From the NCBI RefSeq assembly GCF_004297125.1, contig NZ_SCVD01000011.1, positions 1,286 to 65,285 on the forward strand: a stretch of DNA of 64,000 bases, in the 5' to 3' direction. Shown here piece by piece: positions 7,694 through 24,731 of this stretch. The notes under the pieces were generated by a model. That model worked only from the letters and a program-made list of their open reading frames with translations, ran no database searches and was not told where the DNA came from. Position 1 is the stretch's first letter; every line of letters begins with the position of its first letter. Made by a program: the position numbers and the translations under genes. This DNA is from Phenylobacterium sp. (GTDB lineage: Bacteria; Pseudomonadota; Alphaproteobacteria; Caulobacterales; Caulobacteraceae).

Positions 7694-8638
7694 TCAGACG
7701 GCGTTGATGGGAATCTTCAGGTAGCGGACGCCGTTGTCCTCCGGCTCCGGGAGGCGCCCGGCGCGCATGTTGACCTGCACGGAGGGTAGGATGAGCCGCG
7801 GCATATCGAGCGTACGGTCCCGGGCCTCGCGCAGGGCCACGAACTCGACCTCCCCGACTCCCGCATGCACATGGATGTTGGTCCGCCGTTCGTCGCCGAT
7901 GGTCGTTTCCCACGCGAAGGTGTCGCGACCAGGCGCCTTGTAGTCGTGACACAGGAAGACGCGCGTCGCGTCCGGCAGGGTCAGGAGGCGCTGGATCGAG
8001 CGAAAGAGGGTGGCCGCGTCGCCGCCAGGGAAATCGCATCGTGCGGTCCCATAGTCGGGCATGAACAGGGTGTCGCCGACGAAGGCGGCGTCGCCGATGA
8101 CATAGGCCATGCAGGCCGGCGTGTGGCCGGGGACGCGCAGGGCTATGGCCTGCAGCCCGCCGACCGCGAAACGCTCGCCGTCCTTGAACAGGTGGTCGAA
8201 CTGGCGCCCGTCGCGCGGGAAGTCGGCCCCGGCGTTGAACAGCGCCCCGAAGGTGTCCTGGACCCGTACGATCCTGTCGCCGATCGCGAGCCGACCGCCA
8301 AGGGCGGCCTGCAGGTAGGGCGCGGCCGAGAGGTGATCGGCATGGGCGTGGGTTTCCAGCTGCCAGGCCACTTCCAGCCCTTCCGCCCGGACGTAGGCGA
8401 TCAGGGCGTCGGCCGAGCCGTGTGACGTGCGGCCCGCGGCCGGATCGTAGTCGAGCACGCTGTCGATGATGGCGCAGGCCTTGGAGGCCGGGTCGCGCAC
8501 CACATAGCTGACGGTGAAGGTCGCTTCATCGAAGAAGGCCCGTACATCTGGCTGCTGGGATGGCGCGCTGCGCGCGCCCTCGACGAGGGTGCGCGCCACC
8601 TCTGCGGCCACATCGGCGGAGGCGGTCGGATCACGCAT
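7694..8638 (-). CDS. Persulfide (sulfur) dioxygenase, ETHE1/Blh-like metallo-beta-lactamase fold
   Basis: ETHAHADHLSAA, PGHTPAC, GDTLFMPDYGTARCDFPGG, FLCHDY and C-terminal YLKIPIN motifs. Confidence 0.9.
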   Translation of the reverse strand: MRDPTASADVAAEVARTLVEGARSAPSQQPDVRAFFDEATFTVSYVVRDPASKACAIIDSVLDYDPAAGRTSHGSADALIAYVRAEGLEVAWQLETHAHADHLSAAPYLQAALGGRLAIGDRIVRVQDTFGALFNAGADFPRDGRQFDHLFKDGERFAVGGLQAIALRVPGHTPACMAYVIGDAAFVGDTLFMPDYGTARCDFPGGDAATLFRSIQRLLTLPDATRVFLCHDYKAPGRDTFAWETTIGDERRTNIHVHAGVGEVEFVALREARDRTLDMPRLILPSVQVNMRAGRLPEPEDNGVRYLKIPINAV

Positions 8639-8678
8639 CGTGGAAACTCATCGGTTGCATCGCCTTGTGGAAATATAT

Positions 8679-8694
8679 ATGCGAATATATGCAG
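8679..8694. promoter_or_regulatory. Candidate ArsR (SqrR/BigR-type) operator 1
   Basis: ATGCGAATATATGCAG in the AT-rich gap between divergent dioxygenase and tauE genes; same pattern at 12722 and 21140. Confidence 0.55.
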
Positions 8695-8722
8695 ATACAA
8701 GCTCGATCGGTGATCGCCCACC

Positions 8723-9496
8723 ATGTCCGTGTTCATGATCGTCTCGGCCCTGGCGAGCGGCGCCCTGGTCGGCGCCCTCCTTGGGCTGTTCGGCGGTGGC
8801 GGATCGGTGCTCGCGACGCCCCTGCTGCTCTACGTCGTGGGGATCCGGGATCCGCACGTGGCGATCGGCACCTCGGCCGCCGCGGTGGCGGTCAATGCGG
8901 CGATCAGCCTGATGGGTCACGCGCGGGGCGGGCGGGTGAAGTGGCCCTGCGCGACCGTCTTCGCCGGTGCGGGCCTGATCGGCTCCTTCGCGGGCTCCGG
9001 CTTGGCGAAAGCCGTCGAGGGCCAGCGACTGCTGTTGTTCTTCGCGGTCGCCATGGCGGCCATCGCGCTCTCCATGCTTCGTCGCCCGAAGTCGGCTGGC
9101 GATCCCGATGTCCACATCACCCTGCCGCTGATGATGAAGCTCGCGCCGCTGGGCGTCCTGACCGGGCTGGCGGCGGGCTTCTTCGGGATCGGAGGCGGGT
9201 TCCTGATCGTCCCGGGCCTGATGGCGGCCACCGGCATGACCCTGGCCAACGCGGCGGCCTCCTCCCTGCTGTCGGTGTCGGTGTTTGGCGCCGCGACCTC
9301 GCTGAACTACGCCCTGACCGGCCAAGTGAACTGGCCGGTGGCGGCCCTCTTCATCCTGGGCGGCCTCGGCGGGGGAGCGCTCGGCGTGCGCGCGGCCGGC
9401 CTGCTGGCCGGGCGCGTCGTGCTGGCGCGACGCCTGTTCGCCGGGCTGGTCCTGCTGGTCGCCGCTTATGTCGCCTGGCGGGCCGTGGGCTCATAG
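8723..9496 (+). CDS. Sulfite exporter TauE/SafE family protein
   Basis: 257 aa hydrophobic; repeated GLFGGGGSVL / GFFGIGGGFLIVP motifs. Confidence 0.9.
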   Translation: MSVFMIVSALASGALVGALLGLFGGGGSVLATPLLLYVVGIRDPHVAIGTSAAAVAVNAAISLMGHARGGRVKWPCATVFAGAGLIGSFAGSGLAKAVEGQRLLLFFAVAMAAIALSMLRRPKSAGDPDVHITLPLMMKLAPLGVLTGLAAGFFGIGGGFLIVPGLMAATGMTLANAAASSLLSVSVFGAATSLNYALTGQVNWPVAALFILGGLGGGALGVRAAGLLAGRVVLARRLFAGLVLLVAAYVAWRAVGS

Positions 9497-11086
9497 CCGG
9501 CCGGAGACGTCCAGGATGGTCGTACACAGCGCCAGCGGCGCGGGGCGGTGGCTGACGATCACCACGCCCTGGCCGGTGCGGAGCAGACGCCGGTCCAGGG
9601 CCGCCACCAGCGCGGCCTCGGTGCGGGGGTCAAGGCCCTCGGTCGGCTCGTCCAGGAGGAGCCAGGGCGCATCCCGCAGATAGGTGCGGGCGAGCGACAG
9701 TCGCCGCCGCTCGCCGCCGGACAGCACCTCGCCCCCGTCGCCGATCCACGTCGCCAGGCCATGGGAAAGGCGCCGCACGCGGGCGTCCAGCTGCGCGTCG
9801 GCCAAGGCGTCCCAGAGGGCGGCGTCATCCGCCGCCGGCGCGGCCAGGCGAAGGTTTTCCGCCACCGTGCCGGTGACCAGGCGCGCGTCCTGCGGTGCAT
9901 AGGCGAACAGGGACCGCGCCCAGCCGAGCGGTGCGCTCTCGAGGGGGGTCGCTGCGATCGAGATCCGAACGGCGGGCGCAGCGCGAAGGCCGACCAGCGC
10001 TTCGAGCGTGCGGGTCTTCCCGCAGCCGGAAGGACCGGCGAGGCCAAGCCTGGCGCCGGGCTCGAGCCGCCGGCCGTCGATCTCCAGGGCGGCGTCCGAC
10101 GGCGGGTCCGTCTCGTCCGGGCCCGGGTCGACCAGCACCGCATCCAGCCGGGTCACCGCCTCGCGATAGGCCCCGCGCTGTTGCGCCGCCCGCAGCAGGC
10201 CGGCGACGCCCTCCGTCCCGGCGAGCGCGGCGAGCACCGCCAATGCGGCCAGCGGCAGGGGCGCCGCCGAGACCAGGAGCGCCACCGCGACGAGCGTCGC
10301 CGCGCCCAGGCCCGCCTGGAGGAGGTTGAGTACGGCTTCAGCGTCGCTGCGCTTCAGGGTCGCCCTGCCGAGCGCGGTGTCGTGGGCCATGAGCGCTTCG
10401 ATGGCCCGTGGGGTCAGGTCGAAGCTCCGCAGCTCCGGGGCGGCGGCGAGATAGGCGCCCAAGCCATCCTTCAGGCGGCCCGCGGCGCGAAGCTGGTCGC
10501 GGCCGGCGTCGGCGGTGAGGCGTGCGGCGAGCCGGCGGCCGGCCAGGATCTGCGCCGCCAGGCCCAGCAGGAACGCGAGCACGCCCCAGGGCGAGGCCAG
10601 GGCGATGACGGCGCCCGCCGCGCCCGCCCCGGCGGCTGCGGCCCAGGGCGCCGAGCGCCGCACGAACTCCGTCTCCAGGACATTGACGTCCTGCACCAGA
10701 CGGGCGGCCGCCTCGCCGGACGAAAGCGCCAGTGAGATCGTCGGAGGAGCCGCCGCAAGCCCCGCGAACAGGGCCGGGCGCAGGGCCGCCAGGGCCTGGA
10801 AGGCGGCCCGGTGGCTGAACAGCCGCTCGCCGTAGCGTCCGGCGGTGCGCACGATCGCCAGGCCGCGCAGTCCGGCGCTCGGCAGCAGGTAGTTGAATGC
10901 CCAGACGGCGGCTGGGCCGGCCGCGCCCGCCAGCGCGGCGCCGGCGAGGAACCAACCCGAGAGCCCCAGCAGCAGGGTCGTGGCCGCGGCGGTCGCCGCG
11001 CCGCAGGCGGCGGCGATCCAGAGGTCGCCGCGGCGCCGCCGGACCTGACCTGCCAGGAAATCGCCGATCGGGGAGGGGGCGCTCAT
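9491..11086 (-). CDS. cydC: Thiol reductant ABC exporter subunit CydC
   Basis: LLGLSGWF...RTAGRYGERLFSH; Walker A GPSGCGKT, LSGGERRR, LLLDEPT; next to cydD. Confidence 0.88.
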   Translation of the reverse strand: MSAPSPIGDFLAGQVRRRRGDLWIAAACGAATAAATTLLLGLSGWFLAGAALAGAAGPAAVWAFNYLLPSAGLRGLAIVRTAGRYGERLFSHRAAFQALAALRPALFAGLAAAPPTISLALSSGEAAARLVQDVNVLETEFVRRSAPWAAAAGAGAAGAVIALASPWGVLAFLLGLAAQILAGRRLAARLTADAGRDQLRAAGRLKDGLGAYLAAAPELRSFDLTPRAIEALMAHDTALGRATLKRSDAEAVLNLLQAGLGAATLVAVALLVSAAPLPLAALAVLAALAGTEGVAGLLRAAQQRGAYREAVTRLDAVLVDPGPDETDPPSDAALEIDGRRLEPGARLGLAGPSGCGKTRTLEALVGLRAAPAVRISIAATPLESAPLGWARSLFAYAPQDARLVTGTVAENLRLAAPAADDAALWDALADAQLDARVRRLSHGLATWIGDGGEVLSGGERRRLSLARTYLRDAPWLLLDEPTEGLDPRTEAALVAALDRRLLRTGQGVVIVSHRPAPLALCTTILDVSGRL

Positions 11087-12711
11087 GGCAGTCTCACCAC
11101 ATGGTCGGCGGCGGCGGCGAGGGCCTCGGAATGGGTGGCGACGATCACCGTGCGGCCGTGGGCGGCCTGGCGGATGATGGCGATGATTTCACCCTCGGCC
11201 ACAGGGTCGAGATCCGCGGTCGGCTCGTCGAGCAGGAGCAGCGGCGCGGGCTTGAGGAGGGCCCGCGCGAGGGCGAGGCGGCGGCGCTCGCCGCCCGAAA
11301 GCCCCGACCCGCGCTCGTCCAGGCGAAGGTCCGCGCCGGCCTCGCGCCGGGCCAGCGCCGGCCCGAGCCCCACCAGGTCGGCCATCGCCAGCGCCGCCTC
11401 GGGTGACACTCCGGGCGCGGCGGCCATGAGGTTGTCGATCAGCGAGCCCGGCAGGAAGGCTGGCGCCTGGCCCGCCCAGGCGGACAGGCTGGCGAACCCG
11501 CCGGTGTCGGCGAGGCGCAGGCCGCCGACCTCCACGGATCCGGTTTCCAGGGGGGTCAGGCCGAGGATTGCGGCCAGCACTGACGACTTTCCCGATCCGG
11601 TCGGCCCGACGATGGCGGTGACCCGTCCGGCGGGCGCTGTGGCGTCCAGCGGGCCGACGACGAGATCGCCGAAGCGCAGGCTGAGGTTGCGAAGCCGGAC
11701 GTCCGGCGCGGCGTCCGCGGGCAGCGCCAAGGCCAGCGCGGCTGGGGGTGGTGGGATGGCGAGCATGGGTCGCAGGCGCTCGGCGGCGGCTTCGCCGAGC
11801 TGCTTCTCGTGATAGGCGCCGGCCAGCCTCCGCATCGGCGCGTAGAACTCCGGCGCCAGGGCCAGGGCGAAGAAGGCGTGCCGGAAGTCCAGGGTCTCCG
11901 GGACCTTGAACGGCAGCAGCCCCAGCAGCGAGAAGCCGCAGTAGACGGCGACCAGCGCGACCGCCAGAGCGGCGAAGAACTCCAGCCCGGCCGTCGAGAT
12001 GAAGGCGATCCGCAGCACGCCCAGCGTCCGCCGGCTGACCTCTTCCGCCGCTTGGGCGACGCGGGCTGTCTCCTGCCCCTGCGCCTGGAACGCCAGAACG
12101 ACAGGCAGCGCCCGGACCCGGTCGACGAAATGGCCGGAGAGCTGCGCCAGGGCCTCGAACTGGCGGGTGGCCGCCGCCGCGGCCGCGCCGCCGGCTAGCG
12201 CCATGATCGCCGCGAACGGGACCAGGGTGGCCAGCAGGATGGCGGCGCTCACCGGACTGGCCAGGGCCACGGCGCCGGCGATCAGCAGCGGGCCGAGCCG
12301 GGCCTCCAGCGCGGCGGGCTGGAACTGGGTGAAGTAGCCGTCAACCGCGTCGATCTCGTCGACGACGGTCGCGGTCGCCTCGCCCAGGGACGCCCCATCG
12401 CCGCGGCGGCGGCCAAGGACCGCACCCAGGGCCTCGCGCCTCAGCCCCGCCTTGACCCTCAACGCATGGCGCGCGGCCAGGCGGGCGATCGCCCAGGACG
12501 CCGTCGCGCGCACGGCCAGGGCCGCGCCGAGGCCCACGAGTCCGGGCAGGGCGGCGCGCCCGGTCAGCACCCAGGTCAGGCAGAAGGCGAAGGCCGCTGC
12601 GCCGGCGGCGTTGATCGAGGTCAAGGCGAGAAGGGGACCAGTGGGCGCATGAGCCGCCCGTCCACGGAGCGCAAGGAACCTCCTGTTGGCGGCGGTGTCG
12701 GCGGCGCTCAT
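11083..12711 (-). CDS. cydD: Thiol reductant ABC exporter subunit CydD
   Basis: EFFAALAVALVAVYCG...LAPEFYAPMRRLAGAYH; GPTGSGKS, LSGGERRR; divergent from cydA. Confidence 0.88.
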   Translation of the reverse strand: MSAADTAANRRFLALRGRAAHAPTGPLLALTSINAAGAAAFAFCLTWVLTGRAALPGLVGLGAALAVRATASWAIARLAARHALRVKAGLRREALGAVLGRRRGDGASLGEATATVVDEIDAVDGYFTQFQPAALEARLGPLLIAGAVALASPVSAAILLATLVPFAAIMALAGGAAAAAATRQFEALAQLSGHFVDRVRALPVVLAFQAQGQETARVAQAAEEVSRRTLGVLRIAFISTAGLEFFAALAVALVAVYCGFSLLGLLPFKVPETLDFRHAFFALALAPEFYAPMRRLAGAYHEKQLGEAAAERLRPMLAIPPPPAALALALPADAAPDVRLRNLSLRFGDLVVGPLDATAPAGRVTAIVGPTGSGKSSVLAAILGLTPLETGSVEVGGLRLADTGGFASLSAWAGQAPAFLPGSLIDNLMAAAPGVSPEAALAMADLVGLGPALARREAGADLRLDERGSGLSGGERRRLALARALLKPAPLLLLDEPTADLDPVAEGEIIAIIRQAAHGRTVIVATHSEALAAAADHVVRLP

Positions 12712-12721
12712 CGGATCATAA

Positions 12722-12737
12722 ATGCATAATTGCGCAT
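12722..12737. promoter_or_regulatory. Candidate ArsR operator 2
   Basis: ATGCATAATTGCGCAT, perfect ATGC-N8-GCAT arms, in the ~96-bp cydD/cydA divergent gap. Confidence 0.55.
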
Positions 12738-12807
12738 CTTAGAAGATACAGATATTGCGGCGCCGTCGTCGCGGGTGTTCACTGCGGTGAAACTAGGAAC
12801 CTCGGTC

Positions 12808-14376
12808 ATGACCATGGATGTCGTCGAACTCTCCAGGCTGCAGTTCGCCCTGACGGCCATGTACCACTTTCTCTTCGTGCCGCTGACGTTGGGCCTGTCG
12901 TTCCTGCTGGTCATCATGGAGAGCATCTATGTGATGACCGGCCGCCCGATCTGGCGGACCATCACCCGCTTCTGGGCGACCATCTTCGGCATCAACTTCG
13001 TCCTGGGGGTCGCGACCGGCCTTACCATGGAGTTCGAATTCGGGACCAACTGGTCCTACTACTCGCACTACGTGGGCGACATCTTCGGCGCGCCTCTGGC
13101 CATCGAGGGCCTGATGGCCTTCTTCCTGGAAGCCACCTTCGTTGGCCTGATGTTCTTCGGCTGGGAAAAGCTCTCCCGACAGGCGCACCTCTTCGTCACT
13201 TTCATGGTCGCGCTCGGGTCGAACCTGTCGGCTCTGTGGATACTGATCGCGAACGGCTGGATGCAGAATCCGGTCGGCGCGGCGTTCAATCCCGACACCA
13301 TGCGCATGGAGGTGACCAGCTTCCGCGACGTGCTGTTCAACCCGGTGGCCCAGGCGAAGTTCGTTCATACGGTGAGCGCGGGGTACGTCACGGCCTCCGT
13401 CTTCGTGCTGGGGATCTCGGCGATCATGCTGCTTGGCGGCAAGTGGCCACGGGTGGCCAAGCGGTCCTTCGCCGTGGCCGCGTCCTTCGGCCTGGCCGCA
13501 TCCCTCTCGGTCGTCGTGCTGGGCGACGAGAGCGGCTACGCCCTCACCGACAACCAGAAAATGAAGCTCGCGGCGCTGGAAGCCATGTGGGAGACCGAGC
13601 CCGCCCCCGCCGGACTGGCGGCCTTCGGCATCCCTAGCCTGGCCGACCGCAAGACCTACGCCGAGGTGAAGATCCCCTATGTGCTCGGGCTGATCGCCAC
13701 CCGCAGCATCGACAAGCCGGTCTCCGGCATCTTCGAACTGGTGGCCGTCGCCGAGACCCGGGTCGAGAACGGGATCAAGGCCTATGACGCGCTGGAGCGC
13801 CTCAAGGCCTCGCCCCAGGACCTGGTGGCGCGCGCCGACTTCGAGCTCAGCCGCAAGGACCTGGGCTACGGCCTGCTGTTGAAGCGCTATGTCGCCGACC
13901 CGCGCACCGCCGACCGGGCGACCATCCAGAAGGCGGCCTGGGACACCGTGCCGAACGTGCCGGTGATGTTCTGGGTGTTCCGGATCATGGCCGGAATCGG
14001 TTTCCTGCAGATCGCAGTCTTCGCAGCGGCCTTCGTCCTGGTGACGCTCCGCCGGTGCGAGACCAAGTGGATCCTCTGGACCGCGGTCGCCATCATGCCG
14101 TTGCCGTGGATCGCGGCGGAAGCTGGCTGGGTCCTGGCCGAACTGGGGCGTCAGCCCTGGGCGGTGGAGGGCGTCCTGCCGACCTTCCTCGGAGTCTCCA
14201 GCCTGACCGTCGGCCAGCTCTGGACCACGATCATCGGCTTCACCTTGCTCTATGGGGCGCTGGCCGTCGTCGAGGTCGGCCTCATCGTTCGGACCGTCAA
14301 GCGCGGACCCTACGCTCATCACGACCAGCCCGACGGCGGCGCGGCGGCATCGATCCGTCTCGCCCCGGCCGAATAG
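12808..14376 (+). CDS. cydA: Cytochrome bd ubiquinol oxidase subunit I (long Q-loop type)
   Basis: AMYHFLFVPLTLG, AKFVHTV, GDESGY..QKMKLAALEAMW, FWVFRIM, ELGRQPW; start set at ATG after AGGAAC. Confidence 0.96.
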   Translation: MTMDVVELSRLQFALTAMYHFLFVPLTLGLSFLLVIMESIYVMTGRPIWRTITRFWATIFGINFVLGVATGLTMEFEFGTNWSYYSHYVGDIFGAPLAIEGLMAFFLEATFVGLMFFGWEKLSRQAHLFVTFMVALGSNLSALWILIANGWMQNPVGAAFNPDTMRMEVTSFRDVLFNPVAQAKFVHTVSAGYVTASVFVLGISAIMLLGGKWPRVAKRSFAVAASFGLAASLSVVVLGDESGYALTDNQKMKLAALEAMWETEPAPAGLAAFGIPSLADRKTYAEVKIPYVLGLIATRSIDKPVSGIFELVAVAETRVENGIKAYDALERLKASPQDLVARADFELSRKDLGYGLLLKRYVADPRTADRATIQKAAWDTVPNVPVMFWVFRIMAGIGFLQIAVFAAAFVLVTLRRCETKWILWTAVAIMPLPWIAAEAGWVLAELGRQPWAVEGVLPTFLGVSSLTVGQLWTTIIGFTLLYGALAVVEVGLIVRTVKRGPYAHHDQPDGGAAASIRLAPAE

Positions 14377-14388
14377 GGACTCAGGACG

Positions 14389-15537
14389 ATGCACATTCCC
14401 CTCGACTACGAGACACTGCGGGTCATCTGGTGGGGCCTGATGGGCGTGCTGCTGATCGGCTTCGCGCTCACCGACGGCTTCGACCTGGGGGTCGCCGCCC
14501 TGCTGCCCTTCGTCGCCCGCAACGACGGCGAGCGGCGGATGGTGATCAACACCATCGGCGCCACCTGGGAAGGCAACCAGGTGTGGTTCATCCTGGGCGG
14601 CGGGGCGATCTTTGCGGCCTGGCCGTTCGTCTACGCCGTCAGCTTCTCGGGCTTCTACCTGGCGATGTTCGCGGTGCTCGCGGCCCTCATCCTGCGGCCG
14701 GTCGGCTTCAAGTACCGCTCAAAGCGGCCCTCGAAGACGTGGCGGACGGCGTGGGACTGGGCCCTGTTCGTCGGCGGCTTCGTCCCGGCCCTGGTGTTCG
14801 GGGTGGCGGTGGGCAACGTCCTGCAGGGGATTCCCTTCCGGCTCGACGGCGATCTGCGCGCCACCTACACCGGAACCTTCCTCGGCCTGTTCACCCCCTT
14901 CACGCTGGTCTGCGGGCTGCTGTCGGTGGCCATGCTGGTGACCCATGGCGCGGCCTGGCTGACCATCAAGGCTGAACACGGGGCAGTGCGCGACCGGGCG
15001 CGGGCCATTGGCTCCGTCGCCGCGCTCGCGGCCATCGTCCTCTTCGCAGCCGGGTATGCGTTCGTGGCGTTCGGCGGTCTCGGCTTCCGCCTGGACGGCG
15101 CCGTCGATCCAGCCGGCCCGTCCAACCCGCTGCGCGCGGCCGCCGTGGCCGCCCCCGGGGGATGGCTCACCAACTTCGCCACCTATCCGTGGATGTGGAT
15201 CGCGCCCGTCCTCGGCTTCGCGGGCGCGGCCCTGGCCCTGGTGGGCATCCGCGCGGGCCGCGAAGTCCCGGCCTTCGCCGGCTCTTCCCTGTCGGCGCTA
15301 GGGATCATCTCCACCGTGGGGCTCGCGATGTTCCCCTTCATCCTGCCCAGCAGCATCGACCCGAGGTCGAGCCTGACGGTCTGGAACGCGTCGTCCAGCC
15401 ACATGACCCTGTTCGTCATGCTGGTGGTCACCGTGGTCTTCCTGCCGATCGTGCTGGCCTACACCGCCTGGGCTTACAAGGTGATGTTCGGCCGCTCCTC
15501 GGTCGGCGACCTGAACACCAACCCCGATCTCTACTGA
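14389..15537 (+). CDS. cydB: Cytochrome bd oxidase subunit II
   Basis: TDGFDLGV, WEGNQVWFILGGGAIFAAWP, SLTVWNASSS. Confidence 0.96.
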   Translation: MHIPLDYETLRVIWWGLMGVLLIGFALTDGFDLGVAALLPFVARNDGERRMVINTIGATWEGNQVWFILGGGAIFAAWPFVYAVSFSGFYLAMFAVLAALILRPVGFKYRSKRPSKTWRTAWDWALFVGGFVPALVFGVAVGNVLQGIPFRLDGDLRATYTGTFLGLFTPFTLVCGLLSVAMLVTHGAAWLTIKAEHGAVRDRARAIGSVAALAAIVLFAAGYAFVAFGGLGFRLDGAVDPAGPSNPLRAAAVAAPGGWLTNFATYPWMWIAPVLGFAGAALALVGIRAGREVPAFAGSSLSALGIISTVGLAMFPFILPSSIDPRSSLTVWNASSSHMTLFVMLVVTVVFLPIVLAYTAWAYKVMFGRSSVGDLNTNPDLY

Positions 15538-15549
15538 GGAGTCCCGAGC

Positions 15550-15669
15550 ATGTGGTATTTCACCTGGGTGCTTGGCCTGGGCCTGGCGGTCGCCTTCGGC
15601 ATCCTCAACGGCATGTGGCACGAATTCCACCTCGTCGATTCCGGCGACGACGGTGAGGACGACGCGTAA
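15550..15669 (+). CDS. cydX: Cytochrome bd oxidase small subunit
   Basis: Manual translation MWYFTWVLGLGLAVAFGILNGMWHEFHLVDSGDDGEDDA (39 aa) directly after cydB, GAGGAG RBS. Confidence 0.93.
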   Translation: MWYFTWVLGLGLAVAFGILNGMWHEFHLVDSGDDGEDDA

Positions 15670-16092: not shown

Positions 16093-16166
16093 CTGCTTAA
16101 TGTAGAAGATGCGCATCAACGATCAAGGCGATGGTGGCCCGCTCGCTCGCCGACGATGCGATGGCG

Positions 16167-19100
16167 CTACGCCGGCTTGCCTCCGCGCTCAACGGCGGTT
16201 GTCGGCCCAGGTGGGCGGCTATCGTCCCTCAGGACGACATAGATCGCCGGGATCACCAGCACGGTCAGCAGGGTGGACGAGGCCAGACCGAACAGCAGCG
16301 AGATCGCCAGCCCCTGGAAGATCGGGTCGGTAAGGATCACCGCCGCGCCGATCATGGCGGCCGCGGCCGTCAGCACGATGGGCTTGAAGCGGATTGCGCC
16401 GGCCTCCAGCAGGACCTCGCGCAAGGGCCGCTCGCCGGTCTGGCTGTGGCGGATGAAGTCCACCAGCAGGATCGAGTTGCGCACGATGATCCCGGCCAGG
16501 GCGATGAAGCCGATCATCGAGGTGGCGGTGAAGGGCGCCCGGAACAGGATGTGGCCGACGACGATGCCCACAAGGGTCAGCGGGATCGGGGTCAGGATGA
16601 CCAGCGGCAGGCGGAAGCTTTTGAACTGGGCGACCACCAGGACGTAGATGCCGAGGATCGCCACGCCGAACGCCGCGCCCATGTCGCGGAAGGTCACCCA
16701 GGTGATCTCCCACTCGCCGTCCCAGAGCACGGTGGGCCGGCTCTCGTCCGTGGGCTGGCCGTGCAGGCGGATGTCGGGCTTGGGGACGCCTGTCCAATCG
16801 CCCTCCTTCAGCGCCTTGTCGACCGCGAGCATGCCGTAGATCGGCGCCTCGTAGGCGCCGGCGAGCTCGCCCATCACCATGTCCAGGTCGCGTCCGTCGC
16901 GGCGGAAGATGTGGGTCGAGCCGGCTTCGGTCGACGCCGTGGCGACTTCGCCAAGTGACACCAGCCGTCCCCCGGCGGGGCCCTGCGACACCGCCACCGG
17001 CATGGCGGCGAGGCCTTCGCCCCAGCTGCGCGCCGATTGCGGCAGGCGCACGGAGATCTCAAGGGGATCGCGACCCTCGCCGCGGTGGGCGTAGCCGACG
17101 ACCTGGCCGCCGAGGGCCGCGGCGATGGAGTCGTAGACGTCCCGGTCGCCGACCTTCAGCGCCTCAAGCCGGTCGCGGTCGGGGACCAGCCGCAGGCCTG
17201 GCCGGGGCTGGCCGTAGCTGTCGTCGATGTCGACGATGTAGGGCACGGAATGGAATGCGGCCTTCACGCGCGTGGCCACCGCGCGCCGCGTCGCCGCGTC
17301 GGGACCGTAGACCTCCGCCAGCAGGGTCGCCATCACCGGTGGTCCGGGCGGCGCCTCGACCACCTTGATCGCCGCGCCCGCGGGCAGGGCGACCTTGGCG
17401 AGCCTTCGGCGCAGGTCGAGGGCGATGGCGTGGCTGTTGCGGCGGCGCTCGCCCTTCTCGGCCAGGGTGACGGAGAGGTCGCCCATCTCCGGCTTGTTGC
17501 GAAGATAGTAGTGGCGCACGAGGCCGTTGAAATTGAACGGGGAGGCCGTCCCGGCATAGGCGTCCACGGCGACGACTTCCGGCAGGGCGCGGGCGATCGC
17601 CGCCGCGTCGCCGAGCGCGCGCTGGGTGGCCTCCAGGGACGTCCCTTCAGGCATGTCGACCACCACCTGCAACTCGGACTTGTTGTCGAAGGGCAGCAGT
17701 TTCACCGTCACCGTCTTGGTGGCGAACATGGCGCAGGCCAGAAGCGTCGCGACGCCGACGGCGATGAGGAAGGTCCAGGCCGACCGGCGGGTGGCGATCA
17801 CGCGGCCCGCGACCTTTCGGTAGATCGCCTCGAGCCGGCCTTCGACATGGGATCCGTGTCCGGCCGCCAGCGTCTTGCGCGCGAAGCGCACCATCAGCCA
17901 GGGCGCGATCACCACGGCGACAAAGAACGAGAAGACCATGGCCGCCGAGGCGTTGACCGGAATCGGCGCCATGTAGGGGCCCATCAGGCCCGAGACGAAC
18001 AGCATCGGCAGCAGGGCGGTGACGACAGTGAGCGTGGCCACCACGGTGGGGTTGCCGACCTCGGCCACGGCCTCGACGGCCGCGTCCACGCGGGTTCGCC
18101 CGTCCGCCATCGCCCAGTGGCGGGCGATGTTCTCGATCATGACGATGGCGTCGTCGACCAGGATGCCGATGGAGAAGATCAGGGCGAACAGGCTGACCCG
18201 ATTGATGGTGTAGCCCAGCAGGTTCGAGGCGAAGAGGGTGAGCAGGATGGTGGTCGGGATCACCACGGCGGTGACCGCCGCCTCGCGCCAGCCGATGGCG
18301 AAGCCGATCAGGACGACGATCGACAGGGTGGCGAGCCCGAGGTGGAAGAGCAGCTCGTTGGCCTTCTCGTTCGCTGTGGCGCCATAGTCGCGCGTCACAG
18401 AGACGCTCAGGCTGTCCGGCAGAAGCGAGCCCTTCAGCGCCTCGACCCGGGCCAGGACGGCCTGGGAGACGACGACGGCGTTGGCGCCCTTGCGCTTGGC
18501 GATCGCCAGGCTGACGGCAGGGGCTTCACTCCAGCCCTGGGCGGTTCGGGCATAGCGCCAGGCGCGGGCCTGATCCTCGCGCGGGCCTTCGACCACCTGG
18601 GCGACGTCGCGGACATAGACGCTCTCGCCCTTGGCGGAGGGCAGGGCGAGCAGGCCGATCTCCGTCGCGTTGGCGAGGGTCCGCCCGGCCGTGACGTCGA
18701 CGGCCTGGCCGCCGTTGCGCACCTGACCGGCCGGGAAGGCGCGGTTGGCCTGGCGGATGGTGTCCATGAGGGCTCCCAGCGACACCCCATGCTGGGCGAG
18801 CCTCGCCGGATCGGGCTCGACGCGGATCTCCTGCGGCCGGCCGCCGACGATGAAGGTCAGGCCCACGTCGTCGACCTTGGTCACTTCGTTGCGCAGCTTG
18901 CCGGCCAGTTCGTGGAGCGCCTGGTCGGTCCATTGCCCGGCGGCGCCGGGCTTTGGCGAGAGGGTCAGCACCAGGCTGGGCACGTCGTTGATGCCACGGG
19001 TCTGGATCAGCGGCTCGGGGATGCCCGCCGGAATCCGGTCGTAGTTCGCGCGGACCTTCTCGTGGATGCGCACCGCCGCGGCGTCCGGATCGGTCCCGAC

Positions 19101-19403
19101 GTCGAAACGCGCGGTGACCATAACCTGGTTGTCGTCGGCGAAGGTGTAGACGTGCTCGACGCCCGAGACGCTCTTCACGATCGTCTCCAGGGGTTTGCCG
19201 ACCAGCTCCACGGCGTCCGGCGCCCGCAAGCCGGGTGCGGAGACCATGATGTCGACCATGGGCACGCTGATCTGAGGTTCCTCCTCGCGGGGGATCGACA
19301 TCAGGGCCAGCAGGCCCACGGCGATCGCCGCCAGCAGGAAGAGCGGCGTCAGCGGCGAGCGGATGGTCGCGCGCGTCAGGCGTCCGGAGAGGCCGAGGTT
19401 CAT
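16167..19403 (-). CDS. RND efflux transporter permease subunit
   Basis: 1078 aa; PREEEPQI.VPMVD, GILVDDAIVMIENI, GIIVRNSILLVDF, RFKPIVLT. Confidence 0.95.
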   Translation of the reverse strand: MNLGLSGRLTRATIRSPLTPLFLLAAIAVGLLALMSIPREEEPQISVPMVDIMVSAPGLRAPDAVELVGKPLETIVKSVSGVEHVYTFADDNQVMVTARFDVGTDPDAAAVRIHEKVRANYDRIPAGIPEPLIQTRGINDVPSLVLTLSPKPGAAGQWTDQALHELAGKLRNEVTKVDDVGLTFIVGGRPQEIRVEPDPARLAQHGVSLGALMDTIRQANRAFPAGQVRNGGQAVDVTAGRTLANATEIGLLALPSAKGESVYVRDVAQVVEGPREDQARAWRYARTAQGWSEAPAVSLAIAKRKGANAVVVSQAVLARVEALKGSLLPDSLSVSVTRDYGATANEKANELLFHLGLATLSIVVLIGFAIGWREAAVTAVVIPTTILLTLFASNLLGYTINRVSLFALIFSIGILVDDAIVMIENIARHWAMADGRTRVDAAVEAVAEVGNPTVVATLTVVTALLPMLFVSGLMGPYMAPIPVNASAAMVFSFFVAVVIAPWLMVRFARKTLAAGHGSHVEGRLEAIYRKVAGRVIATRRSAWTFLIAVGVATLLACAMFATKTVTVKLLPFDNKSELQVVVDMPEGTSLEATQRALGDAAAIARALPEVVAVDAYAGTASPFNFNGLVRHYYLRNKPEMGDLSVTLAEKGERRRNSHAIALDLRRRLAKVALPAGAAIKVVEAPPGPPVMATLLAEVYGPDAATRRAVATRVKAAFHSVPYIVDIDDSYGQPRPGLRLVPDRDRLEALKVGDRDVYDSIAAALGGQVVGYAHRGEGRDPLEISVRLPQSARSWGEGLAAMPVAVSQGPAGGRLVSLGEVATASTEAGSTHIFRRDGRDLDMVMGELAGAYEAPIYGMLAVDKALKEGDWTGVPKPDIRLHGQPTDESRPTVLWDGEWEITWVTFRDMGAAFGVAILGIYVLVVAQFKSFRLPLVILTPIPLTLVGIVVGHILFRAPFTATSMIGFIALAGIIVRNSILLVDFIRHSQTGERPLREVLLEAGAIRFKPIVLTAAAAMIGAAVILTDPIFQGLAISLLFGLASSTLLTVLVIPAIYVVLRDDSRPPGPTTAVERGGKPA

Positions 19404-20466: not shown

Positions 20467-20796
20467 CTAGCCGGTGACCGTCGGCAGGCCGGCGGCCTTC
20501 CAGGCGGCGAGGCCGCCGGCGAGATGCGTCTCGATGGCCTGGTCGGCCCGGCGGCACTGGTCCACCGCCATGGCCGAGCGCTTGCCGCCGGCGCACTGCA
20601 GCACGATCGTCTTGCCGCCCGCCGCGGGGAGCGCGGCGGGGTCGAAGCTCGACAGCGGCACGTTCAGGGCGCCGGCGATCCGGTCGGCGGCGAACTCGGC
20701 GGGCTCGCGCACGTCGATCAGCAGGATTTCCTGGGCGTCGAGCGCGGCCTTCACCTGCTGCGGGGTGAGGTCCTTGGTCTTGGGGGCGCCGGTCAT
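20467..20796 (-). CDS. Single-domain rhodanese (sulfurtransferase)
   Basis: LIDVREPAEF, active loop CAGGKRS, LAGGLAAWK. Confidence 0.92.
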   Translation of the reverse strand: MTGAPKTKDLTPQQVKAALDAQEILLIDVREPAEFAADRIAGALNVPLSSFDPAALPAAGGKTIVLQCAGGKRSAMAVDQCRRADQAIETHLAGGLAAWKAAGLPTVTG

Positions 20797-20808
20797 GTGG
20801 AGGCTCCT

Positions 20809-21129
20809 TTAGGGCTGCGCGCGGTCGGGGACCGCGCAGAAGAGGCGGGACAGGGTCTCGACCAGAGCGCGGGCCTGGCCGCTCTGCAGGCCGTAGTAGA
20901 TGGTCTGGCCGTCACGACGGGCGGCGACCACGCCGTCCCGGCGCAGCAGGCCGAGGTGTTGCGACGCCAGGGTCTCACGCACGCCCAGCATCTGGGCGAG
21001 CGCACCTACCGACTGCTCGCCCTCGATCAGGCTGCAGACGATCATCAGCCGATGCGGGTTCGCCAGCGCCTTGAGCAGGGCGCACGCGTCGTCGGCCGAG
21101 GCTTTCATGGCGCGGACGTCTAATTTCAT
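20809..21129 (-). CDS. ArsR/SmtB-family persulfide-sensing regulator, BigR/SqrR-like (copy 1)
   Basis: LKALANPHRLMIVC...SQHLGLLRRDGVVAARRDGQTIYY...LSRLFC; the MIVC/LFC Cys pair matches SqrR/BigR. Confidence 0.9.
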   Translation of the reverse strand: MKLDVRAMKASADDACALLKALANPHRLMIVCSLIEGEQSVGALAQMLGVRETLASQHLGLLRRDGVVAARRDGQTIYYGLQSGQARALVETLSRLFCAVPDRAQP

Positions 21130-21139
21130 AGTTGCGTAT

Positions 21140-21155
21140 ATGCGTCTATATGAAT
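21140..21155. promoter_or_regulatory. Candidate ArsR operator 3
   Basis: ATGCGTCTATATGAAT, 11-26 bp upstream of the regulator's start, between it and sqr. Confidence 0.6.
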
Positions 21156-21286
21156 ATTTAGTCAATCATCGTGAGGTTCACCGTAGCCGCGCCGATGGCC
21201 CGGGGACCTGATCTGCATCAAGGCCAGCGGGCGAACACGGGCGGATGCTCGCGGTGAGCCGTCCTGGGCCATCGAGGAGACCGACT

Positions 21287-22567
21287 ATGGCCAAGCCGCG
21301 CATTGTGATTCTGGGCGCAGGATTGGGCGGCGCGATCGCCGCCTTCGAGGTCAAGGACGCCGTCGGCGAGAAGGCCGAGGTGAGGGTCGTGTCGCAGGGC
21401 GACACCTTCCACTTCGTCCCGTCAAACCCCTGGGTCGCGGTCCATTGGCGCAAGCGCGGCGCCATCGAAGTCAAGCTGCCGCCGGTGTTCAAGAAGCGCG
21501 GCATCGGCTTCACCGGGGTCGGCGCCAAACACGTCTCGCCGGCTCAGAACCAGCTGGAGCTGAACGACGGGACAGTCGTCGACTACGACTACCTGATCAT
21601 CGCCACCGGCCCGGACCTGGCCTTCGACGAGATCGCAGGGCTGGGGCCGCACGGGGGGTTCACCCAGTCGGTCTGCCACGTAGACCATGCCGAGGCCGCC
21701 GCCGCCGCCTTCGACCGATTTGTCGAGAACCCGGGCCCGATCGTCGTCGGCGCGGTCCAGGGCGCCTCGTGTTTCGGCCCGGCCTACGAGTTCGCGATGA
21801 TCCTCGACACCGAACTGAAGCGCCGCAAGATCCGCGACAAGGTCCCGATGACCTTCGTCACCTCGGAACCCTACGTGGGCCACCTGGGCCTCGACGGGGT
21901 CGGCGACACCAAGGGACTGCTCGAAAGCGAGATGCGCGAGCGCCACATCAAGTGGATCACCAACGCCAAGGTGACCGCCGTCGAGGCGGGCCTGATGCAT
22001 GTCGACGAGATCTCCGACGACGGCTCGGTCAAGCAGACCCACGACCTGCCCTTCGCCTATTCGATGATGCTGCCGGCTTTCCGCGGCGTCGCCGCGGTGC
22101 GCGGCGTCGAAGGGCTGACCAACCCGCGCGGCTTCGTCGTCATCGACAAGCACCAGCGCAATCCGACCTTCCCCAATGTCTTCGGCCTCGGCGTCTGCGT
22201 GGCCATCGCGCCGACCGGCAAGACCCCGGTGCCGGTGGGCGTGCCGAAGACCGGCTTCATGATCGAGAGCATGGTCACCGCCATCGCCCACAATATCGCC
22301 CAGCTCGTCGACGGCCAGCCCACAACCCACGAAGCCACCTGGAACGCCTTCTGCCTGGCCGACTTCGGCGACGGCGGCGTGGCCTTCGTCGCCCAGCCGC
22401 AGATCCCGCCGCGCAACGTCAACTGGTCGGCCAGCGGCAAGTGGGTCCACCTCGCGAAGGTGGCCTTCGAGAAATACTTCCTGGCCAAGATCCGGCGGGG
22501 CGAGAGCGAGCCCTTCTACGAGAAGCTGGCCCTGGAGGTGATGGGGCTGCGGAAGATCAAGGGCTGA
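21287..22567 (+). CDS. sqr: Sulfide:quinone oxidoreductase, type I (SqrA-like)
   Basis: GAGLGG FAD fold; TQSVCHVDHA, ASCFGPAYE, PKTGFMIESM, CLADFGDGG (three conserved Cys). Confidence 0.92.
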   Translation: MAKPRIVILGAGLGGAIAAFEVKDAVGEKAEVRVVSQGDTFHFVPSNPWVAVHWRKRGAIEVKLPPVFKKRGIGFTGVGAKHVSPAQNQLELNDGTVVDYDYLIIATGPDLAFDEIAGLGPHGGFTQSVCHVDHAEAAAAAFDRFVENPGPIVVGAVQGASCFGPAYEFAMILDTELKRRKIRDKVPMTFVTSEPYVGHLGLDGVGDTKGLLESEMRERHIKWITNAKVTAVEAGLMHVDEISDDGSVKQTHDLPFAYSMMLPAFRGVAAVRGVEGLTNPRGFVVIDKHQRNPTFPNVFGLGVCVAIAPTGKTPVPVGVPKTGFMIESMVTAIAHNIAQLVDGQPTTHEATWNAFCLADFGDGGVAFVAQPQIPPRNVNWSASGKWVHLAKVAFEKYFLAKIRRGESEPFYEKLALEVMGLRKIKG

Positions 22568-22570
22568 GCC

Positions 22571-22765
22571 ATGCGCCAGTTCGCCTGCCCCGCCTGTGGC
22601 GCGGCCAATCGCACGCCGGCCGGCAAGGACCCGCTGTCGGCGAAATGGAACGGCCGGCTCGTGGCTCGAACGGCGGGCCTGACGAACACCGCTCAGATCG
22701 TCGCCTGGACGCGCCAGGCCCTCGCCCAGGCGTCGTCCGGGGCGGCTTCAGGAGATCAATCATGA
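22571..22765 (+). pseudogene. Thioredoxin-2 (TrxC)-like gene with in-frame internal deletion
   Basis: 64 aa: CPACGAANRTP..DPLSAK joined directly to NGRLVARTAG...QIVAW; second CxxC and the WCxPC site are absent. Confidence 0.7.
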
Positions 22766-22965
22766 CCCTCGACCGTATGGTCTTCGTCTTCGCCGGCTTC
22801 GTGGTCCTGCTCAGCGTCGCCCTCGCGCAGCTCGTGAATCCCTGGTGGATCGCGTTGGCGGTCTTCGCCGGCCTCAATATGATCCAGGCGGCGTTCACCG
22901 GTTTCTGTCCGGCTGCGATGATCTTCAAGAAGCTGGGATTCAAACCCGGGGCCGCCTTCCGGTGA
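22762..22965 (+). CDS. DUF2892 (YgaP-like) membrane protein
   Basis: 67 aa, MTLDRMVFVFAG...QAAFTGFCPAA; AGGAGA RBS. Confidence 0.9.
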   Translation: MTLDRMVFVFAGFVVLLSVALAQLVNPWWIALAVFAGLNMIQAAFTGFCPAAMIFKKLGFKPGAAFR

Positions 22966-24227
22966 TTCGGGTGCGGGCCATCGTCGCCCTCAGCCTGGCG
23001 GCCTGCCTCGTCGCACCGCAGGTCGCGGCGGCGCTGTCGCTGCCGGAAGCGATCGTACTCGCTCAGCGCGGCAACCCCGGCCTCGCACAGGTCAGGGCGC
23101 TGGCGGACGCCGCCGAGGCGCGACTGGTCCAGGCGAGGTCCGGACGCCTCCCCAGTGTCACCCTCTCCGCCGACGCCGGACAGGGAACCACCGACCTGGG
23201 CGGCTTCTTCGGCTTCGGTAGAGTTGATGTTTCGCCGCGAGGCGCCGCCCTGGAGCTGCGCCAACCGATCTTCACCGGCGGCGCCGTCAGCGCCGCGGTT
23301 GTCCGCGCCAGGGAGGCGCGGGACGCGGCCATGGCCCAGGCGGGCGGCGTCCGCTCGCTGCTGACGGCCCAGGCCGCCGAGGTCTACGCAGCGGTCCTCG
23401 GCGCCGATGAGATCCTGCGGCTCCACGAGGCGCAGGTGCGCCAGACCAGCGAGATCGAGCGCCAGGCCGGCCTTCGCTTCAAGGGTGGCGAGGTCGCCAG
23501 GACCGATGTGGCCCAGGCCCAGGCGCGCCTGGCGCAGGCCCAGGCGGACCTGGCGCGGGCGCGCGGCGACGCGGCCAGGGCGAGGGCGCGGTTCCAGTCC
23601 GTCGTGGGCGCAGCGGCGGAGGGGCTTGAGCCCCTGCCGCTCCCGCCGCCCACGCCCACCTCGCTCAACGAGGCTCTGGCCAGCGCGGAGCGAGCCAGCC
23701 CGACCTTGCTGGCCGCGCAGGCTGCGGCGCGCGCGGCCGAGGCCGGCGTCCGTTACGCCCGGGCGGAGCGGCTGCCGAACCTGGCGCTCGCCGCGACGGC
23801 CAGCACCACGCGAGACAAGTTCTTCCCGGGCTACAGGGCCGATGACGTCACGGTGGGCGTGAAGGGGCGCTGGACCCTGTTCGCCGGCGGCGCGATCGAG
23901 GCCCGGGTCGGTGAGGCGCGCGCCGGCGCGCGCGAAGCGCAGGCCGCCCTGGCGGCCGCCCGCGCCCAGGTCCGCGAGACCGTCATCGGCGCCTGGGAAG
24001 ATGTCCAGACGTCGCGCGCCCTGGTCGCGGCCGCCGACGACCAGGCGACGGCGGCGGCCAGCGCGCTCGACAGCGTGCGCAACGAAGTCCGCGTCGGCCA
24101 GAAGCCCACGCTCGACCTCCTCGACGCCGAGCGCGAGGCGCTGGCGGCGCAGAGCGCCGTGGTTTCGACCCGGGGCGGCGCCGTCGCGGCCGCCTATCGC
24201 CTGAACGCGCTCCTCCACGTCGAATAG
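22962..24227 (+). CDS. TolC-family outer membrane protein
   Basis: GTG start overlapping the previous stop; signal peptide, LSLPEAIVLAQRGNP, LRQPIFTGG, GQKPTLDLLDAERE. Confidence 0.9.
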   Translation: MIRVRAIVALSLAACLVAPQVAAALSLPEAIVLAQRGNPGLAQVRALADAAEARLVQARSGRLPSVTLSADAGQGTTDLGGFFGFGRVDVSPRGAALELRQPIFTGGAVSAAVVRAREARDAAMAQAGGVRSLLTAQAAEVYAAVLGADEILRLHEAQVRQTSEIERQAGLRFKGGEVARTDVAQAQARLAQAQADLARARGDAARARARFQSVVGAAAEGLEPLPLPPPTPTSLNEALASAERASPTLLAAQAAARAAEAGVRYARAERLPNLALAATASTTRDKFFPGYRADDVTVGVKGRWTLFAGGAIEARVGEARAGAREAQAALAAARAQVRETVIGAWEDVQTSRALVAAADDQATAAASALDSVRNEVRVGQKPTLDLLDAEREALAAQSAVVSTRGGAVAAAYRLNALLHVE

Positions 24228-24314
24228 CCCGGCCGACCCGCTGCGGACCCTCGCGAACCCGCATCGGCTGCGGATCACGGGCGCGCTCAGCTTCTAAGGG
24301 GGCTTCGAATTCCC

Positions 24315-24731
24315 TCAGGCCACCGCGTCGGCGACACGCCGGCGGATTGTTCCTTCCAGGACAACCGCGGCGGCGACGGTGTTCGAGATCGTCCCGTACT
24401 TGCGGACGTTGCGGTGCAGGAGTTCCAAGCGCCCATCGCTCTCGTCGGTGTCGACGATCAACTCGTAGTCCACGCGCAGGATGAGCGGTGGCGAATCCTG
24501 GCGCGCCGCCCTGAGCCGGACCTCCACACCGCGAAGCTCGAACTTCAGGAGCGGCGTGACCCGCTCGATGCCCTTGATCATGCAGGCGGCGATCGCGGCG
24601 AGGAACAGTTCGACCGGGTTGAACGCATCCCGACGGCCAGTGACGTCCGTGTCCATGACAAGAGCCGCATCCTTCGATCGCGCGAGGCTTCCATGCGCAT
24701 CGACGCGTTCCGCTGTGACCCGATATTCCAT
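24315..24731 (-). CDS. OsmC-like protein
   Basis: FNPVELFLAAIAAC motif; second Cys position reads KYGTISNT. Confidence 0.82.
   Translation of the reverse strand: MEYRVTAERVDAHGSLARSKDAALVMDTDVTGRRDAFNPVELFLAAIAACMIKGIERVTPLLKFELRGVEVRLRAARQDSPPLILRVDYELIVDTDESDGRLELLHRNVRKYGTISNTVAAAVVLEGTIRRRVADAVA

Follow-up and report, generated by a model that had tools for sequence, protein, structure and literature searches.

Positions 7694-24731 of a 64,000-nucleotide stretch of Phenylobacterium sp. DNA (Caulobacteraceae; the whole stretch is called the window below) probably hold a persulfide-controlled sulfide-defence regulon of three modules, one of which supplies a sulfide-insensitive oxidase. These modules are a predicted type I sulfide:quinone oxidoreductase (SQR) gene with a tripartite RND pump, a predicted persulfide dioxygenase (PDO) gene with a TauE-family exporter, and the cytochrome bd genes cydABX with cydDC. 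Their grouping exceeds what would be expected by chance: dozens of further genomes have these genes side by side. Conserved AT-rich boxes lie in the promoter regions of all three modules, and the FNR/FixK box typical of solitary cyd loci is missing.

Gene content of the sulfide-response region

Genes in the window (G+C ~70%) were called by third-position GC content (GC3) and named through Pfam, NCBIfam and PDB searches. The original prediction, made from the DNA letters, had listed the genes of this region and arranged them in three divergent operon pairs. Each gene was found at or near the place given for it, and the three pairs are correct: pdo<>tauE, cydDC<>cydABX and arsR1-rhd-mfp-rnd-arsR2<>sqr-...-DUF2892-tolC (<> marks divergent transcription; rhd is the rhodanese gene). 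The genes of the three modules, with the matches on which their predicted identities rest, are as follows.

7694-8638, minus strand: pdo, predicted persulfide dioxygenase (type II); Pfam Lactamase_B; NCBIfam Blh model positions 137-422; PDB 9G8T/4EFZ/4YSK; motif HAHADH
8723-9496, plus strand: tauE, TauE/SafE-family anion (sulfite) exporter; Pfam TauE, 5e-45
9491-11086, minus strand: cydC, ABC transporter subunit for bd oxidase assembly; NCBIfam CydC models
11083-12711, minus strand: cydD, ABC transporter subunit for bd oxidase assembly; NCBIfam TIGR02857 CydD, 6e-128
12808-14376, plus strand: cydA, cytochrome bd subunit I, with its true start 78 nt into a long open reading frame (ORF); Pfam, 1.7e-166
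14389-15537, plus strand: cydB, cytochrome bd subunit II; TIGR00203, 1e-135
15550-15669, plus strand: cydX, small bd subunit (MWYFTW...); TIGR02106, PF08173
15724-16092, minus strand: arsR2, SqrR/NolR-like ArsR repressor; profile matches and cysteine alignment
16167-19403, minus strand: rnd, divergent RND inner-membrane pump; best PDB match only ~200 bits
19400-20431, minus strand: mfp, periplasmic adaptor (MFP), a lipoprotein; lipoprotein start at 20431, not 20596
20467-20796, minus strand: rhd, single-domain rhodanese without signal peptide; active-site loop CAGGKRS
20809-21129, minus strand: arsR1, BigR/HlyU/SqrR-type repressor with both sensing cysteines; NCBIfam and alignment
21287-22567, plus strand: sqr, predicted type I SQR; PDB similarity
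22762-22965, plus strand: DUF2892/YgaP-like small membrane protein with a conserved GFCP cysteine; family match
22962-24227, plus strand: tolC, TolC-family outer-membrane channel; family match

The identities originally proposed for SQR, PDO and rhodanese hold. SQR matched the A. ferrooxidans type I enzyme 3SZ0 with an E-value of 2.6e-147 and 3HYV with 2.8e-104, compared to 1e-10 for human SQOR. It has the sequence ILGAGLGG (GxGxxG FAD motif), and its three catalytic cysteines, in QSVCHVDH, GASCFGPAYE and NAFCLADFGD, align with C128, C160 and C356 in A. ferrooxidans numbering. By these matches the protein appears to be a type I SQR, a class that acts at the periplasmic face. PDO has a metallo-beta-lactamase fold with HAHADH (HxHxDH) at residue 97, and it matched 4YSK, 4EFZ and 9G8T at E<=1e-116 and human ETHE1 at 8e-18. 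These three structures were deposited as metallo-beta-lactamase-family proteins; 4YSK we take to be a type II persulfide dioxygenase. A DUF442 sulfurtransferase domain was not found in PDO, with the Blh model covered at positions 137-422 only and its score of 399 below the cut-off of 625. The protein is thus predicted to be a stand-alone type II, ETHE1-like dioxygenase and not the bifunctional Blh.

Linkage of sqr with the RND pump

Relatives of the window RND protein were taken from one genome per species with 10-kb flanks, and the window proteins were mapped onto their loci. In the 43 loci with an RND protein at least 55% identical and at least 4 kb of sequence on the adaptor side, the neighbours of rnd included DUF2892 (32 loci), an ArsR gene (26), SQR (25), rhodanese (11), PDO (7) and cydA (2). 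When the RND protein was at least 65% identical, SQR was adjacent in 20/22 loci and DUF2892 in 21/22 (species-representative genomes), which bears out the proposed tie between the pump and SQR. These loci come from Sphingomonadales, Bradyrhizobium, Caulobacterales, Hyphomicrobiales and some Rhodobacterales. The arrangement sqr-DUF2892(-tolC) facing (arsR)-rhd-mfp-rnd-arsR is widespread in Alphaproteobacteria. In six loci (L015, L020, L021, L026, L033 and L053) DUF2892-MFP-RND occurred with no SQR within 10 kb, indicating that the DUF2892 protein, not SQR, is the most constant partner of the pump. In a Rhodobacteraceae metagenome-assembled genome (L029, 5365-6540), fdxA and carD lie ~3 kb from an orthologous MFP-RND pair; this single case is probably a coincidence.

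The tripartite set in the window is complete, with permease, lipoprotein adaptor and TolC channel, the last encoded on the divergent sqr operon. RND pumps load their substrates on the periplasmic side, either from the periplasm itself or from the inner membrane's outer leaflet. We infer that this pump clears a product derived from sulfide, with sulfane sulfur or polysulfide as the likeliest candidates; sulfane sulfur is favoured because type I SQRs face the periplasm, from which, or from the outer leaflet, RND pumps draw. An unlikely alternative, though one that deserves weight, is that RND-MFP-TolC exports no sulfur species and instead handles metal sulfides or thiol-reactive organics, or serves general efflux that shares the sqr promoter. 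The protein is about equally weakly like the multidrug and CusA/CzcA families (409 and 262 bits against the respective subfamily models, all far below cut-offs), and its more distant orthologues stand alone in unrelated contexts. On the other side, SQR adjoins nearly all of the close orthologues, and the cysteine-bearing DUF2892 gene is adjacent in 32/43 loci, often as DUF2892-MFP-RND without any metal genes.

Published work bears on both possibilities. Azospira suillum has an H2S-induced operon with a Bar-seq fitness signal, which encodes SQR, an RND pump with its MFP adaptor and an unknown protein; a DUF2892 gene is induced ~10-fold in that species, and the authors put the RND induction down to metal-sulfide toxicity (PMC5358917). 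Sphingopyxis granuli TFA has anoxia-induced 'sulfur detoxification and export' operons with sulfide-quinone reductases, sulfurtransferases and transport proteins (PMC6472365), which, going by the published description, would match the sqr-pump arrangement. RND pumps and TauE are also named in a 2025 survey of the genes that adjoin two-Cys ArsR regulators (PMC12423496). A search of the SqrR paper's supplement for RND genes adjoining rcc01557 found none.

Linkage of cyd with sulfide genes

The cytochrome bd set is complete, with CydA (long Q-loop type), CydB, CydX and the adjacent CydDC. CydA scored 705 bits against the bd-I model compared to 574 bits against the bd-II model, and its closest relatives are Phenylobacterium/Caulobacter proteins at 87-94% identity. 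The oxidase thus appears to be of the native Caulobacteraceae type, not foreign. An exact look-up of the window CydB returned no match.

We compared cyd contexts among the closest CydA relatives and 80 metagenome loci. This synteny comparison found cyd beside sqr, pdo, tauE, ArsR or RND genes in several lineages, rather than unlinked in all relatives: it adjoins such genes in L082, L083-85, L087, L088, L092, L118, L121, L126, L037 and L040. The contexts can be grouped as follows.

L082, L092: pdo<>tauE-cydCD<>cydA, layout as in the window
L083-85: tauE-cydCD<>cydABX-OsmC-DsrE-cytochrome c…arsR2-rnd, with conjugation genes on the left
L087: pdo<>tauE-cydABX, without cydDC
L088: cydCD<>cydABX-crp-DUF2892-arsR2-CMD-rnd-mfp-rhd-arsR1<>sqr-trx2
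L118, L121, L126, L037, L040: linked, other gene orders
L116, L123, L125, L142, L146: only an ArsR gene beside cydC
C. mirabilis (L091), Phenylobacterium L089 and most other loci: cyd unlinked

In L083 (CydA 89%; positions 1-5700 and 12854-14785), genes for a MobA/MobL relaxase, a TraG/VirD4-type coupling protein, a VirB11-type ATPase and ArsA stand before tauE-cyd, and those for OsmC, DsrE and a SoxA/TsdA-like dihaem cytochrome c come after cydX. This larger sulfur cluster appears to lie on a conjugative element. The locus with the closest RND protein found (L002, 92% identity) joins rnd-arsR2 straight to tauE-pdo without cyd. On its reverse strand at 2990-3040, between the arsR2 and tauE stops, a short reading frame ending in a stop (VIELADTIPSDDV) is faintly like the acidic CydX C-terminus. 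We considered it as a sign of cyd deletion there and dropped it, as the match is too weak.

The original prediction had coupled SQR and PDO to the bd oxidase and, in a module that exports its products, had named CydDC as a thiol exporter. The coupling gains comparative support from this linkage and from the promoter boxes described below; a role of CydDC in exporting the products is not borne out. Whether or not cyd is linked to sulfide genes, cydDC faces away from cydAB in almost all alphaproteobacterial loci, and the NCBIfam 'heme ABC transporter ... CydC/CydD' models matched strongly (9.6e-75 and 4.3e-91), though both below their curated cut-offs. For these two reasons the likelier role of CydDC is in assembling the bd oxidase, not in exporting products.

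Related promoter boxes in the three modules

The promoter regions of the modules contain the following features.

21130-21166, no strand: candidate palindromic sqr/arsR1 promoter/operator, AGTTGCGTATATGCGTCTATATGAATATTTAGTCAAT
8660-8705, no strand: AT-rich box in the pdo/tauE divergent promoter region, CTTGTGGAAATATATATGCGAATATATGCAGATACAAG, with two TATATGC heptamers 10 bp apart
12712-12807, no strand: cydD/cydA divergent promoter region, with the AT-rich box ATAATTGCGCATCTTAGAAGATACAGATATTGCG at 12724-12760 and no FNR/FixK box
16093-16140, minus strand: arsR2 promoter, with -35 TTGATC, a 16-nt spacer containing ATGCGCATCTTCTACAT, -10 TACATT and the start codon ~7 nt after

A palindrome upstream of sqr, ACTTGCGTATATACG-N7-GAATATATAGTCAA, is common to ~20 genomes. 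When the window was scanned with a matrix made from other genomes only, its sqr site was the top match in the 64 kb (54 bits). Ten of the next 11 matches, with negative scores, lie in the cyd, pdo/tauE or arsR2 promoter regions or overlap the sqr site. A scan with a half-site matrix gave noisy results. The pdo/tauE region reads TATATGC-N3-TATATGC, with the same heptamers as at sqr, and its box is kept in L002, L082 and L087. The 16-mer pattern TATATGCG-N2-TATATG occurs in the window only at sqr and pdo/tauE, where 0.02 matches are expected.

The cyd box is kept in L082, L083, L088 and L092, which have TTGCGYAYNTTAGCATATA…TTGCA, with the same heptamer inverted, at the same position. At 12741-12752 the window reads TTAGAAGATA, L082, L083 and L088 read TTAGCATATA, and L092 reads TTATCATATA. 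The sequence ATCTTAGAAGAT in the window cyd region was considered as a functional palindrome and dropped, since relatives have TTAGCATATA there. The arsR2 promoter is kept in L002 and L042 (-35 TTGAyC, 16-nt spacer, -10 TACATw). An exact 10-mer, TGCGCATCTT, has two copies in the 64-kb window, one in the cyd region and one at arsR2, and both positions are kept in the orthologous promoters of relatives. With one mismatch allowed it is weakly enriched (9 found compared to 3.8 expected; 2/100 shuffles reach 9), and we place the weight on the two exact copies and their conservation, not on the mismatch count. A generic promoter and terminator scan gave nothing above the shuffled expectation.

Most cyd loci unlinked to sulfide genes have the FNR/FixK box TTGATC-N4-GATCAA between cydD and cydA, almost always as a perfect copy, such as TTGATCGAGATCAA in C. 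mirabilis. Among 85 distinct cyd loci, 33 have the box with at most one mismatch (31 unlinked, 2 linked) and 52 are without it, 17 of them linked. Thus 17/19 linked loci have no FNR box (Fisher p=0.004, not corrected for phylogeny). Of the loci counted as unlinked and without the box, several lie on short contigs or closely resemble linked loci in their promoter region (L124/L123, L127/L126). The box was not found in the window cydD/cydA region, where the best site has 4 mismatches. A sqr-type box is present at cyd in L128 and L040, and linked cyd loci appear to carry AT-rich boxes that resemble the ones in the sqr, pdo/tauE and arsR2 regions. The absence of an FNR box together with a related AT-rich box at cyd fits sulfide control of the oxidase.

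If cyd were only a neighbour, that is, an ordinary oxygen-regulated bd locus in a variable region, it would share no control with the sulfide genes. The divergent cydDC<>cydABX layout is indeed standard in nearly all alphaproteobacterial loci, many Caulobacteraceae have cyd unlinked (L089, L091), L002 carries the sulfide modules with no cyd between them, and the window cyd box resembles the sqr box in part only. We nevertheless think this improbable. Linkage in at least ten lineages with differing gene orders argues for selection, not accident, neither the window nor most linked loci have the FNR/FixK box, the cyd box itself is kept in four relatives, and L040 has a sqr-type box at cyd.

Two ArsR-family repressors

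Two 2-Cys ArsR regulators had been claimed for the region. This stands for ArsR1, which has its cysteines at the BigR C42 and C108 positions (MIVCSLI and RLFCAV align to LMLVCTLV and TIFCAQ). For ArsR2 it stands in part: the first cysteine aligns to SqrR C41 (LLLLCRL), and the second is displaced. The shifted motif, LC(D/E)(I/L)Y, is kept in all members of the ArsR2 clade recovered (20 or more), and ArsR2 appears by alignment to belong to a sister clade of the canonical BigR/SqrR-type ArsR1. In Sphingomonadales loci an ArsR2-clade protein is the sole regulator beside sqr and the pump. Where a genome has a member of just one of the two clades, its sqr box is built much alike, so the pairing of repressors with boxes proposed below is tentative.

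It could also be that ArsR2, or both ArsR proteins, respond not to persulfide but to a different signal, for example a metal or peroxide, and that the cyd and arsR2 boxes answer differently from that of sqr. ArsR2 is equally similar to the Cys-less NolR and to SqrR, its second cysteine is out of register by a helical turn, and the boxes at cyd and arsR2 are of a different sub-type from those at sqr and pdo. The conservation of the cysteine pair across the ArsR2 clade, and the Sphingomonadales loci in which only a regulator of this clade adjoins sqr and the pump, make such a signal very improbable.

Several observations weigh against a common persulfide control of the three modules. Matches of the matrix away from the sqr site score below zero and may be due in part to AT-richness, and the similarity between the cyd and sqr boxes is partial. 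The window cyd box differs from that of its relatives at two heptamer positions (GAAGATA versus GCATATA); these two substitutions might weaken cyd repression in this strain. The linked loci L095 and L107 keep an FNR box, and the FNR-box statistic counts related genomes as independent. The second cysteine of ArsR2 (TLCDIYG) lies 4 residues before the SqrR C107 position. RND orthologues at 55-64% identity are often alone, with SQR in 5/21. The RNA runs that were found contain <=9% of the sqr words. Deletion of the Azospira sqr-pump operon left the H2S oxidation rate unchanged (PMC5358917).

Mosaic make-up of the region

The original prediction had suggested that the region was acquired en bloc. 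The stretch is instead a mosaic of the sqr-pump module, a pdo/tauE module like the bigR operon and the cydDC/cydABX module, which also occur separately elsewhere and in shuffled orders. Within and beside it are the following further features.

22571-22765, plus strand: thioredoxin-2 remnant, a 64-codon ORF; alignment to the intact Trx2 of L088
24234-24290, plus strand: ArsR-family gene relic ending …ADPLRTLANPHRLRITGALSF and a stop; 43-nt inverted repeat with the arsR1 coding region
24315-24731, minus strand: OsmC-like protein with one cysteine; family match; island membership doubtful
24873-25706, minus strand: DUF4118 protein, 277 aa, between the OsmC-like gene and carD

In L088 an intact Trx2 gene comes after sqr. 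Residues 1-25 and 27-46 of the thioredoxin-2 remnant correspond to residues 1-25 and 118-137 of that protein, and an in-frame deletion of ~residues 26-117 has taken out the thioredoxin domain. The ArsR relic after tolC retains ~20 codons. These two scars suggest stepwise remodelling.

A single transfer of the whole 17 kb as one mobile island would account for flanks that differ in every relative, with TonB-dependent receptors in the window, a DUF5117 protease in L082 and an ABC transporter in L087, and for the MobA, TraG/VirD4-type and VirB11-type genes beside tauE-cyd in L083. It would also fit the one short contig that an exact CarD look-up returned. This contig, L081, encodes an identical CarD and agrees with the window at 92.7% of DNA positions across fdxA-carD. 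The two part ~65 bp beyond the stop codon of carD (near 25932), and the contig is without the island there. However, no tRNA or flanking direct repeats (att site) were found and no integrase is among the called genes, the island genes have a GC3 of 0.81-0.98, close to the 0.86-0.96 of the flanks, and CydA is nearest to other Caulobacteraceae. Together with the varying combinations of the modules and the deletion scars, which point to piecemeal remodelling, this makes a single transfer hard to credit. Among contigs from four DNA runs, a near-identical island is present in groundwater and aquatic metagenomes and in an isolate. The many 'joints' with a short side were discarded as assembly-graph artefacts, and no sign of an empty site came from them.

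Two TonB-dependent receptor genes form the left flank, and the DUF4118 membrane protein gene, carD and fdxA form the right flank. The OsmC-like gene is present as predicted. It is absent from all RND-centred relative loci, not lying beside the pump in any relative, and we rejected it as a member of the system. The DUF4118 protein resembles the membrane/linker part of KdpD (model positions 400-585) without the kinase domain, and its gene lies within the stretch missing from L081. Between the two receptor genes, a 103-aa ORF at 4393-4704 (plus strand) has a coding-like GC3 of 0.91 and no Pfam match. A second TauE/SafE-family gene, at 32600-33361 (minus strand), lies beside a cytidine deaminase gene in a conserved part of the window, with no obvious sulfide-type box.

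Proposed mechanism and significance

Sulfide poisons haem-copper oxidases, and bd oxidases resist it. The sequence of events that we propose leans on established properties of the named families. In the absence of sulfide, ArsR1 and ArsR2 would occupy the AT-rich boxes at sqr/arsR1, pdo/tauE, cydDC/cydABX and arsR2 and keep these promoters off. When sulfide enters, basal type I SQR would yield sulfane sulfur, which would bridge the cysteine pairs of the repressors and release them, so that sulfide would induce the three modules. SQR would then hand electrons from sulfide to quinone, rhodanese and the type II PDO would turn persulfide into sulfite or thiosulfate, and TauE would export these anions. 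Cytochrome bd, assembled with CydDC, would reoxidise the quinol while sulfide blocks the haem-copper oxidases. DUF2892 and RND-MFP-TolC would clear a sulfide-derived product from the membrane or periplasm.

A more far-reaching proposal, which joins two claims and which we regard as doubtful, is that DUF2892 with RND-MFP-TolC carries polysulfide or S8 from the periplasm-facing SQR across the outer membrane, and that the cyd promoter was rewired from FNR/FixK to a persulfide-sensing ArsR in several alphaproteobacterial lineages. To our knowledge, no protein has been assigned to the outer-membrane step of sulfane-sulfur export in bacteria that deposit sulfur outside the cell. The near-obligate pairing of this RND pump and a cysteine-bearing DUF2892 protein with type I SQR suggests that sulfide detoxification includes an export step not yet assigned. 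If true, the cyd rewiring would provide a direct mechanism for sulfide induction of a bd oxidase. The cyd loci amount to a natural experiment, in which the same oxidase operon has an FNR box when alone and an ArsR-type box beside sqr and pdo. If neither rewiring nor export holds, the region is an ordinary, well-annotatable sulfide-detoxification cluster.

Sulfide induction of cydAB by Na2S is known in A. baumannii (PMC7315123). In E. coli, the SqrR/BigR homologue YgaV controls cydAB, as judged by RNA-seq only, with no operator at cyd shown; that study called the mechanism of sulfide-induced cydAB unknown before implicating YgaV (PMC9774250). For every functional link proposed there is a precedent in the literature, and the sqr-RND arrangement and ArsR-type control of cydAB both have published precedents (PMC5358917, PMC6472365, PMC9774250, PMC12423496). 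A literature search found no paper on cyd built into such a cluster, or on the exchange of an FNR box for an ArsR box. What appears to be new, judging from the promoter sequences, is the FNR box at unlinked cyd as opposed to the AT-rich ArsR-type box at linked cyd.

Comparison with known systems

The Rhodobacter capsulatus SqrR regulon, which includes sqr and the rhodanese rcc01557 and has an ATTC-N8-GAAT box, shares with the window a Cys-pair ArsR repressor, a type I sqr and a single-domain rhodanese. Its AT-rich palindromic boxes overlap promoters and respond to persulfide by derepression, a likeness that for the window is predicted from sequence. The window differs in its box (TTGCGTATATGCG…TATAGTCAA), in having two paralogous regulators and in the physical inclusion of RND, DUF2892, TolC and cyd. 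The bigR operon (bigR-blh-tauE-like) of Xylella and Agrobacterium, which keeps aerobic respiration going under sulfide, is alike in its BigR-type repressor, ETHE1-type dioxygenase and TauE exporter. The window PDO, however, is without DUF442, pdo and tauE are divergent with no adjoining regulator gene, and SQR and a bd oxidase are present.

The Azospira suillum cluster Dsui_3440-3443 is alike in its H2S-induced SQR with RND pump and adaptor, DUF2892 also being induced, and the Sphingopyxis granuli TFA operons appear alike by description, with sulfide-quinone reductases, sulfurtransferases and transport proteins induced by anoxia. No cyd is reported in either cluster, the gene order differs, and the function of the pump was left open or ascribed to metal sulfides. 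In E. coli, the YgaV-YgaP pair is alike in that a SqrR/BigR homologue influences bd expression and a YgaP-type DUF2892 domain is tied to the regulator. There cydAB is unlinked and mainly under FNR/ArcA, whereas in the window cyd lies inside the cluster and is without an FNR box.

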